Positions 10,736 through 33,146 of a stretch of 40,019 bases of DNA are shown piece by piece. Below the pieces are notes generated by a model. That model was not told the DNA's origin and made no database searches. It worked only from the letters and a program-made list of their open reading frames with translations. Position numbers and translations under genes: made by a program. Position 1 is the first letter of the stretch, and each line of letters opens with the position of its first letter. Source of the DNA: Octopus sinensis (Eukaryota); contig NW_021835433.1 in the NCBI RefSeq assembly GCF_006345805.1, forward strand, positions 1-40,019, read 5' to 3'.

Positions 10736-11522
10736 ATATTTTGGATAATCGCCACATCCTTCGTTTTTCGGCTTTGAAAGCAGGAGGTTTGGACATTTTT
10801 ACAGTTAGTACCAATTTGAAAATCACTATGTCTACACGTTTTAACATTTCTAAGAGATGAATCTTTAATTTGTTGTTAAGTCACGTTACATGACTGGTTA
10901 GTTTTGTTCCTGTTTCTCCAATGTAATTCTCATTGCATTGTGAGCATGTGGTGTGGTGTAGTAGATCAGACATTTTATTTTGCATTTCATGTTTGCATTC
11001 ACATTCAATTCCTTCTCATTCTTGAATCTTTTAGTTGTTTCTTCTTCAAGTACTCCACATTTTGTTACCTGGATTCTTTCTTTCTCCAAGGTGAATTTCG
11101 CTTTAGTTAGGGTTCTCTTGAGACTTGGCGGTTGTCTTCGACTGTTGATGATTTGTGATTTTAAAAATTATTTGTCGGAGATTTGTTGACTGATATAAAA
11201 TTGAGAGGTATCGTTGGCTGAATGTAGTATGTTGTGATTCCTGGGATTATGAGCGACAACAAATAGAACAGTTATATTTGTGTTTGTTTTCAAACGCAGT
11301 AGTTAGAGTGTTTCTCCGTAAAGCAGAAATCAGGATTTCTTTTGCTTTGATTATGGTTTAGGAAGCCCGTGATCTATGATGAAACACGGAAGCAATCTGC
11401 ACAACAGTTTTAAAATTTTGAAATGTAGCTCTTCACCAGTGTAGCAAAACTTATCTCCTTTCTGAGTGAAATAAAATTCACATCTTTTCGTCGGTCTAAA
11501 AGCAAATAAATAAAATTATCAA

Positions 11523-29364: not shown

Positions 29365-30585
29365 AACTTTCAAGCAGGATCTAAAAGCTGTCAGAGAAAA
29401 ACTCCAACATCAGAAGAGAATAACCGAGAGAAGAACAATAAAGAAAAAATTTAACCGGAACTGGGCAGCAGTATACAGAGACATGAGAGGAGGAGCAGTG
29501 AACATCACAGAAACTCCTTCACGAGAAGACAGACTCTTTCTGGAGGTAAATCTGGAGTGAAGAGGTGTTTAACCAAGATGCTCTGTGGCTGGAAGAAATC
29601 TGAAGAAGTTATTGCTTTTGCTTTACATCCAAGACATACAACATCGATGGTATTACCCTTGTAACTGTGATCCAGAAACTTCAGGGTGGAAAAGCACATG
29701 GAAAAGACTTGATTGTTGGATATTGGTACAAAAAGCTAACCTTCTACGGACCATATCTTATCAATCTGTACCAGCAAGCTCTCAATGGGAACAGTAGCAT
29801 ACCGTACTGGCTAGCTCTGGCAGAGTCAACATTGATGCCCAAATGCAGAACCACACAAATGGTAAAAAGCTACCGGCCAATTGCATGCGAGAACTTAATG
29901 TATAAGATATATACAGCGTGCTTAAACCTCTTTCTCCAGGACTTGGAAGCACTCCGTCAGTTACGACGACGAGGGTTCCGGTTGATCCGAATCAACGGAA
30001 CAGCCTGCTCGTGAAATTAACGTGTAAGTGGCTGAACATTCCACAGACACGTGTACCCTTAACGTAGTTCTTGGGGATATTCAGCGTGACACAGAGAGTG
30101 ACAAGGCCGGCCCTTTGAAATACAGGTACAACAGAAACAGGAAGTAAGAGTGAGAGAAAGTTGTGGTGAAAGAGTACAGCAGGGATCACCACCATCCCCT
30201 GCCGGAGCCTCGTGGAGCTTTAGGTGTTTTAGCTCAATAAACACTCTCAACGCCCGGTCTGGGAATCGAAACCGCGATCCTATGACCGCGAGTCCGCTGC
30301 CCTAACCACTGGGCCATTGCGCCTCCACTCTCCAGGACTATTGTGAAGCCAACATCATCACAACAGAACAAGCAGCTGGGGAGAAGGGAGATTGGGGATG
30401 TACCGAGAAATTGTGAATAAACAAAACTGTGATGCCAGAGGTGCGAGAGCATAGGAGGAACCTAGTTTCAATGTGGCTAGACTACAAGAAAGCCTTTGAC
30501 TCTGTTCCCAACTCACAGATGCTAGAAGCCCTTCAACTTGCTAAAGTTCCAGTGAGAATAGTCAAAGCCATAGTTCACCTGATTT
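29365..30585 (+). mobile_element. R4/Dong-clade non-LTR retrotransposon RT fragment, interrupted by a SINE
   Basis: AHGKDLIVGYWYKKL, YRPIACENLMYKIYT, EQAAGEKGDWGC, MWLDYKKAFDSVP; frame rejoins when the SINE and one TSD are removed. Confidence 0.85.
29944..30328 (-). mobile_element. tRNA-Arg-like SINE family C, tail type 2, with 11-bp TSD
   Basis: Head GGAGGCGCAATGGCCCAGTGGTTAGGGCAGCGGACTCGCGG; TSD TCTCCAGGACT at 29933-29943 and 30329-30339. Confidence 0.92.
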
Positions 30586-32478: not shown

Positions 32479-32535
<57 letters not shown>

Positions 32536-33091
32536 ACGGAGATGTACTCGCATAGCAAGTGACTTGATCTGAGATCGTGTGCTGAAACAAAAACAATTGC
32601 AGCGTGGAAGATGTTTGTAAGCCATTCCAGAACACACAAAGACCGTTAGATTCAAATCAACATTTAAATTTAATTTCTGCCAAAATATTTTCGTCGCGTT
32701 GAAACCGCGACCTGTTCACTGACAAAACGATGCAGCACGATGCTTTGTCAGTGAACAGGTTGCGCTTTGAAGGCGACGAAAATATTCTGACACAAATTAA
32801 ATATAAATGTTGAAGTGAAAGTTATGGTTTTTGTATTTTCCTAAATGACTTACAAAGATCTGCAATAGTTTATGTGTGTATATATATATATATATATACA
32901 GCACGGACTTTGTCAGTGAACAGGTCGCGGATTTTAGCGACGAAAATATTTTGACAAACTGAAATGTTGAAGTGAATCGAACGGCGTTTGTGTGTTTCTT
33001 AAATGGCTTATAAACACCTTCCACGCTGCAATTGTTTTCGTTTCAGCACACGATCTCAGATCAAATTACTTGCTATGCGAGTACATCTCCG

Positions 33092-33092
<1 letters not shown>
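32536..33092. mobile_element. Penelope pLTR-like inverted-repeat structure in (TA)n, with three hammerhead variants
   Basis: Arm 32536-32726 is an imperfect reverse complement of 32909-33092; an extra partial copy lies at 32744-32820. Confidence 0.8.
32909..32958 (+). ncRNA. Minimal type I hammerhead-like motif with G3-C8 core variant
   Basis: TTTGTCA-GTGAACA-g-GTCGC..GCGAC-GAAA-ATAT-TT/TGACAAA; sister copies at 32678-32726 (-) and 32744-32792 (+). Confidence 0.7.

Positions 33093-33146
<54 letters not shown>

Follow-up and report, generated by a model that had tools for sequence, protein, structure and literature searches.

A natural G3-C8 variant of the minimal type I hammerhead motif in the pLTRs of an octopus Penelope-like element

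Three hammerhead motifs found close together in the genome of Octopus sinensis have G3-C8 at the position of the catalytic 3-8 pair. They are probably pLTR copies of a young autonomous Penelope-like element (PLE) and represent a G3-C8 hammerhead that is likely to cleave itself slowly, aided by dimerization or by the protein of the element. The stretch of DNA analyzed, here called the window, comprises 40,019 nucleotides (contig NW_021835433.1, positions 1 to 40,019). The observations that bear on this reading concern the motifs and their surroundings, the repeat family to which they belong, the parent element, the state of the 3-8 pair in related elements and the ends of the genomic copies.

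Hammerhead motifs at the locus

The motifs lie within positions 32536-33095 and, as described in the initial annotation, each consists of stem I, GTGAACA, a single G, stem II, GAAA, ATAT, T(T/C) and stem I' (Table 1). All three are minimal type I hammerheads with a G3-C8 core. U4-G5-A6, A9 and G12-A13-A14-A15.1/U16.1 are in register around stems I and II, and positions 3 and 8 form a Watson-Crick pair, although the C3 and G8 identities of the canonical CUGANGA are absent. Loop III has the palindrome A-ATAT-T (AATATT) that had been claimed for it, and a NUH site with U17 is present. Stems I and II occur in the minimum-energy folds, with z-scores relative to shuffled sequences of -2.6, -0.9 and -2.8 for copies 1, 2 and 3, respectively; at -0.9, the fold of copy 2 is no better than those of its shuffles. 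Scans with the Rfam covariance models returned no hammerhead match. This blank is uninformative, because the canonical C3-G8 minimal motif of locus L194 is missed by the same scans.

Table 1. Features of the hammerhead locus and its flanks (window coordinates)
Feature	Position	Strand	Details
Hammerhead motif 1	32676..32727	-	G3 32719, C8 32714; sequence and fold
Motif 1, elements	stem I 32727-32720; GTGAACA 32719-32713; GAAA 32692-32689; N17 (T) 32683	-	
Motif 1, predicted cut	32683/32682	-	
Hammerhead motif 2	32744..32794	+	core 32751-32757, G3 32751, C8 32756, rare C17 at 32787
Hammerhead motif 3	32909..32958	+	core 32916-32922, G3 32916, C8 32921
Motif 3, elements	G12-A15.1 32942-32945; U16.1 32950; U17 32951	+	loop III ATAT; predicted cut 32951/32952
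Copy 1 arm	32533..32735	-	older subfamily of the Penelope-like element, pLTR end with the 'tail' (ORF start); start codon 32625
Copy 2 arm	32733..32870	+	inverted tail-less pLTR copy abutting copy 1, likely same insertion
(TG)n(TA)n microsatellite	32872..32898	.	separates the two insertions; copy 3 likely inserted here; sequence
Copy 3 arm	32899..33095	+	younger insertion, 99% identical to pLTR and tail of ORF-bearing copies
ORF start	33003..33095	+	codons 1-31 of the RT-endonuclease ORF of the element; 'tail' formed by the last ~55 nt
(TA)n flank	33094..33137	.	sequence
(CA)n(TA)n flank	32481-32535		opposite side; sequence

Insertion history

The locus had been regarded as an inverted-repeat remnant with three copies. 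The inverted repeat, flanked by (TA)n, is indeed there, but the three copies likely stem from two insertions, because identity to the ORF-bearing subfamily of the parent element is 99% for copy 3 but 91% and 84% for copies 1 and 2. The sequences suggest that copies 1 and 2 likely arrived together and that copy 3 was inserted later into the adjoining (TA)n. The combination of a tailed copy 1 with an inverted, tail-less copy 2 is the commonest insertion form of the family, and such a form has been described for PLEs (PMC8557442). Among 96 tail-anchored copies, drawn from the first 100 listed of 3,257, an inverted arm is found in 56, mostly ending 89-91 nt past the cut site. Of 91 copies scored, 62 have TA-rich DNA after the tail.

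A read-through transcript of the locus, from either strand, is computed to fold into a long hairpin in which copy 1 pairs with copy 2 (about -307 kcal/mol). A stem III formed between copies, which the palindrome had been expected to allow, is therefore unlikely here. The inverted pair would bury both of its ribozymes in this hairpin, so that the locus is likely inert and the copies in the window are likely to be inert passengers.

The repeat family in the genome

The exact pattern has 3,299 matches in the animal's own genome (2.72 Gb) and none in a reversed control, which shows that the motif did not arise by chance. When positions 3, 7 and 8 are left free, 3,619 matches are found and 91% of them are G3/A7/C8; canonical CTGANGA in the same stem context has no match in the genome. 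Among the rows listed from four sequencing runs with four organism labels, no core position differs at a level of at least 4%. The genome counts and the sequencing rows together indicate that the swap is the state of the family and not a private mutation. These counts agree with two earlier proposals, that a repeat family has the G3/C8 double swap as its fixed state and that searches restricted to CUGANGA would miss it. When the genome was searched generically for G3-C8 families whose loop III differs, 257 matches were obtained, compared with 332 in the control, which argues against a second large family of this kind. Four of the matches were fetched, and two of them are decayed older relatives.

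Position 17 is U in 117 of 120 copies and C in two. All positions are about equally conserved in the 116-120 copies compared, N7 as strongly as the core, and no signal of selection on the hammerhead within the family is seen in them. The differences between copies that preserve pairing through G-U had been noted earlier, yet they are not a sign of selection, because CpG-type decay both keeps and breaks pairs: among 116 copies, the C>T change at 10.3, which keeps its pair, occurs eight times and the G>A change at 10.4, which breaks it, nine times.

Tandem arrays of 4 and 6 units, with (TA)n of variable length between the units, are present at L002:1696-2340 and L006:1501-2569. It is possible that they represent an early stage of a retrozyme-like satellite.

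The parent element

Seven of the hammerhead copies among 40 fetched loci continue into common upstream DNA, and a walk upstream from one of them (L080) reaches the end of a GIY-YIG-type ORF. A G3-C8 motif lies downstream on the same strand in 27 of 30 ORF loci, mostly about 1 kb after the stop codon; one of the misses is due to a contig end. Locus L135 contains the complete pLTR-ORF-pLTR unit, its frame being broken once; in L131, L132 and L133 the frames are open over 839, 793 and 722 amino acids. The start codon of the ORF is located inside the pLTR, and the 'tail' is the beginning of the ORF. In the window, all 31 amino acids encoded by 33003-33095 are identical to the N-terminus of the L135 ORF, and the 30 amino acids encoded by 32625-32536 match the ORF N-terminus at 93%.

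The single ORF combines an RT with an endonuclease of the GIY-YIG type at the C terminus, as read from the motifs YVDD and VYQIKC..YIGET..R..EH and from homologues (139 proteins) named as RT-domain proteins. A Pfam search with the parent ORF gave no match. A 219-amino acid stretch of an Octopus vulgaris protein matches here at up to 99%. Judged by its sequence, the parent is a young autonomous EN+ Penelope-like element with an RT, a C-terminal GIY-YIG, pLTRs, a tail and an inverted adjacent copy; the earlier assignment to PLEs, with its advice to look for RT/GIY-YIG ORFs nearby, is borne out by the ORF loci. A GIY-YIG Pfam search of the genome was rejected as a route to the parent, as it returned other PLE clades and none of its 30 loci matched the arm; five of these loci carry a U3-A8 motif.

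The C-terminal GIY-YIG with internal cysteines, the CX2-5CxxC linker, the (TA)n targets, the inverted copy and the tail are shared with the Nematis and Neptune EN+ PLEs, as far as these are described in the available parts of Craig 2021 (PMC8557442). The linker of the octopus element is short (CX3CXXC) and resembles by eye that of the Nematis rows in Figure S2 of the supplement, while the DKG motif reads DKS. The parent is likely Nematis-like by these features, the protein tree of family B and the parent being one that contains no named Nematis reference. The motifs of the octopus family were not encountered in the supplement of Craig 2021, although a match could be concealed by its line breaks, and Repbase or Dfam may already contain the element. 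At a point about 800 nt upstream of the motif in L090, an endonuclease fragment from another PLE family directly adjoins the 3' UTR of the element; the sequence would fit either a nested insertion or a template switch.

The 3-8 pair in related elements

A sister family, here called family B, is about 54% identical in amino acid sequence to the G3-C8 family and has C3-G8 at the homologous place. Its core reads CTGATGC in 40 of 43 matches, and of 2,290 matches in all, the first 100 listed include 97 with C3-G8. In a quick tree of 27 proteins the two families group together (SH-aLRT 98), nested among C-G and U-A lineages, and because of this nesting the G3-C8 state is likely derived, as far as the sequences tell. 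Family B (L171:5364-5410) has C instead of A at position 9 in 96 of the first 100 listed matches, and its loop III is non-palindromic. Another PLE clade of the same genome (L038, L047 and L051-L053) carries a U3-A8 minimal hammerhead, so that one genome holds all three natural states of the pair.

Forty related loci were found in metagenomes, and the 20 whose match reached or nearly reached the ORF end were examined, using scans that did not require pairing of positions 3 and 8. Seven of the 20 have a clear motif (C3-G8 in three, U3-A8 in four), five have an atypical C3-G8 motif recognized by eye (L193, L200 with the near-identical L201, L202 and L204) and eight, some of which have short flanks, have none. 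Odd cores also occur in the clade: C9 in family B and L192, GAAU in L193 and AAAA in L200. These may reflect relaxed selection on catalysis.

An alignment of 15 hand-chosen rows has U4-G5-A6, G10.1, GAAA and U16.1 invariant, and its 3-8 pair is a standard one in every row (G-C in seven, C-G in four, U-A in four). The seven G-C rows belong to one lineage and hence count as one evolutionary event. The covariation score of the pair in these 15 rows is 0.64, compared with 0.19 after shuffling and at most 0.18 in slid controls, and 84% of the cells are paired compared with 58% after shuffling, both being counts that relatedness inflates. Stem II is 93% paired across the lineages, and four of its five pairs have changed on both sides; stem I is 69% paired, with three rows out of register. 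In older relatives found with positions 3, 7 and 8 free, G3 and C8 are kept in six of six matches, one of which is a copy of the main family, while N7 is A, C, T or G and the loops have changed. A clean loop III palindrome is absent from all five older relatives parsed besides L181. Between lineages, then, the motif appears to be under selection as a hammerhead.

Ends of the copies

The 5' ends of the 96 tail-anchored copies lie 43-58 nt upstream of the cut site in 51 cases and are thus uncut, some of the ends at -43 possibly being subfamily indels rather than true ends. A further 14 ends lie farther upstream and 31 farther downstream. Three of the latter coincide with the predicted cut to the nucleotide (p about 0.003 if the position is set beforehand), one of them ambiguous by microhomology with stem I; none of the 56 inverted arms begins there. 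With three of 96 ends at the predicted site, the genomic signs of cleavage in vivo are weak.

An untemplated G precedes AGATG in 27 of 33 rows that stop at that point, a set in which one locus occurs twice and one row is really run-on. None of the 23 run-on rows has a G at that place, where the element itself has C or T in all 23. An additional G at the 5' end marks, in other retrotransposons, a cap that was copied with its mRNA. For Penelope, an internal promoter has been described in this region (PMC2377424), and RT initiation of the Anolis element takes place internally at the tail in vitro (PMC11167929). Taken together, these observations suggest that many of the short copies represent uncut 5' ends of capped mRNA.

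Two sequencing runs guessed to be RNA often show A>G and T>C differences at L135:2609, 2630, 2635 and 2655 (for example 20-25% of the depth at 2635), whereas two large runs show almost none (<0.2%). A-to-I editing of inverted-repeat hairpins is a possible cause, alleles of different individuals being the alternative.

Predicted catalysis and alternative explanations

In the hammerhead ribozyme, G8 acts as the general acid through its 2'-OH. It had been stated that swapping the 3-8 pair restores activity in vitro; rescue does occur, but it is only partial. The G8C change alone is reported to lower the rate 100,000-fold and to be partially rescued by C3G (PMC8495972), and combining C3G with G8C brings back part of the activity of a PLE hammerhead that requires the protein of its element (PMC11167929). 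The computed monomer has G3 paired with N17 at 0.67 with U17, which extends stem I, and at 0.98 with C17. The UUC triplet pointed out in copy 2 is real in that C17 is present, but it is rare in the family and its C17 is likely inhibitory in the model through G3-C17, a trap that the prevalence of U17 avoids. A G3-C8 variant has been described as less active with C17 than with G17, the data not being shown there (PMC3884650).

By combining these predictions with the ends of the copies, a possible course of events can be described. The A of AGATG, 22 nt ahead of G3, would be the first transcribed nucleotide. The ribozyme would then belong to the 5' UTR of a capped mRNA, 22-58 nt downstream of the cap and some 50 nt short of the start codon; read-through transcripts would carry it a second time at their 3' end. 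Reverse transcription would start internally, at the tail or at the pLTR end, and run to the cap, giving copies of about 200 nt in (TA)n that often have an inverted second arm. As the monomer lacks a stem III and has G3 paired with N17, a dimer joined through AAUAUU or the protein of the element would be needed for cleavage; the loop III self-duplex is computed to be weak (-0.2 kcal/mol). Two ribozymes paired through AAUAUU could then be cleaved after U17, with loss of a 58-nt capped leader, or tandem transcripts could be cut into RNA of unit length. Such cleavage would be rare or late, most templates having been copied in uncut form. A point against this course is that insertion in vitro was unchanged in hammerhead mutants (PMC11167929). 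A bolder version, to be held tentatively, is that no natural G3-C8 hammerhead both active and fixed in a genome has been seen before this one, that a near-inactive valley was crossed to reach it, with rescue taking place in nature, and that its site between cap and start codon makes it an mRNA-uncapping switch.

It is also conceivable, though rather unlikely, that the motif descends from the PLE hammerhead but is itself catalytically dead. Its fold or its DNA sequence would then have been kept for protein binding, as a structure of the RT template or as an internal promoter shortly downstream of the start site, the G3-C8 pair having hitch-hiked with a successful element. The uncut origin of most copies, the ability of G3 to pair with N17, the C9, GAAU and AAAA tolerated by sister lineages, the uniform conservation within the family and the location of the Penelope promoter would all agree with such a relic. 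Against it, positions 3 and 8 have both changed and still form a Watson-Crick pair, and three forms of the pair exist across lineages in which N7 and the loops vary. The 3-8 pair would be dispensable for any job but the active-site fold, which disfavors the relic.

Far less probable is a non-autonomous non-LTR retrozyme that propagates as circular RNA in tandem units of about 167 nt, the window then holding a dimer and an inverted copy. The spacing of 166-170 nt in the arrays of L002 and L006 and the 165 nt between copies 2 and 3 fit this, and the non-LTR retrozymes (PMC7229834; bioRxiv 10.64898/2026.07.22.740005) are likewise short repeats with type I hammerheads from PLE pLTRs. Unlike them, the octopus family has an autonomous parent matching at 99% and carries ORF codons, and true tandem units are exceptional, arrays not being the rule in 40 hammerhead-anchored loci. 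The variable (TA)n between units is target DNA. Assignment to the retrozyme class was rejected, as (TA)n spacers and ORF codons were found where that class has non-coding, ORF-less units arranged head to tail.

An accidental likeness, in which a MITE-like hairpin-rich repeat happens to contain TGA..GAAA, has next to no probability: the missing Rfam match agrees with it, but Rfam also misses L194, and the homologous position in PLE lineages, the parent linkage, the quick tree and the 3-8 covariation largely refute it.

Comparison with known hammerheads

The octopus motif agrees with the hammerheads of the minimal type I found in metazoan PLEs (Cervera and De la Pena 2014, PMC4209133) in the pLTR site, the bulged nucleotide after position 9, G10.1-C11.1, the palindromic stem/loop III, the short stem I and the presence of thousands of mostly single or inverted copies. 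The bulge is G in the octopus family as opposed to the consensus H. The cores published there have C3-G8 or U3-A8: G3-C8 does not occur among the 56 motifs of Figure S3 in that paper, whose available parts list no cephalopod. The natural U3-A8 variants (Perreault 2011, PMC3088659; Cervera 2014, PMC4209133) likewise represent a compensatory change of the pair. U3-A8 requires two transitions and could pass through U-G, whereas G3-C8 would arise from C3-G8 by two transversions or another path with mismatched intermediates.

Anolis Poseidon PAc (PMC11167929) resembles the octopus element in having a ribozyme near the ORF start, a tail between two RT start sites, AT-rich targets and uncut RNA as the main template. 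Its G3-C8 is engineered and its cut site lies inside the ORF, whereas the octopus G3-C8 is natural and the predicted cut is about 50 nt before the start codon. In the accessible parts of the publications, which also include Cervera 2020, Li 2026, Kalweit 2013, PMC6765202, PMC10085705 and PMC6962438, G3-C8 appears only as an engineered mutant. Full-text searches revealed no natural G3-C8, their scope extending neither to Lunse 2017 (RNA Biol 14:1499), where an example would be most expected, nor to the 3-8-exchange papers of the Hammann laboratory and the 2012 review. The high-copy G3-C8 core variant appears to be new; the type of ribozyme and the type of retroelement are known.

Thousands of copies with the double swap would amount to a natural confirmation of the 3-8 pair, and one retrotransposon clade would, if this is true, show three Watson-Crick states of a catalytic pair. 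Censuses built on CUGANGA or UUGANAA would undercount ribozymes, and some PLEs scored as ribozyme-less may carry such variants. The function of PLE hammerheads has been called unclear (PMC8557442); the family offers a ready test of whether they are kept for catalysis, and the role of the ribozyme can be tested directly, since the cap-G signature assigns it to the 5' UTR.

Other features of the window

Two further traces of retroelements were seen. Positions 10887-11263 on the minus strand hold a decayed fragment that resembles a PLE protein of another clade (27% identity). On the plus strand, the ORF pieces at 29604-30580 resemble, as judged by eye, a decayed non-LTR reverse transcriptase.
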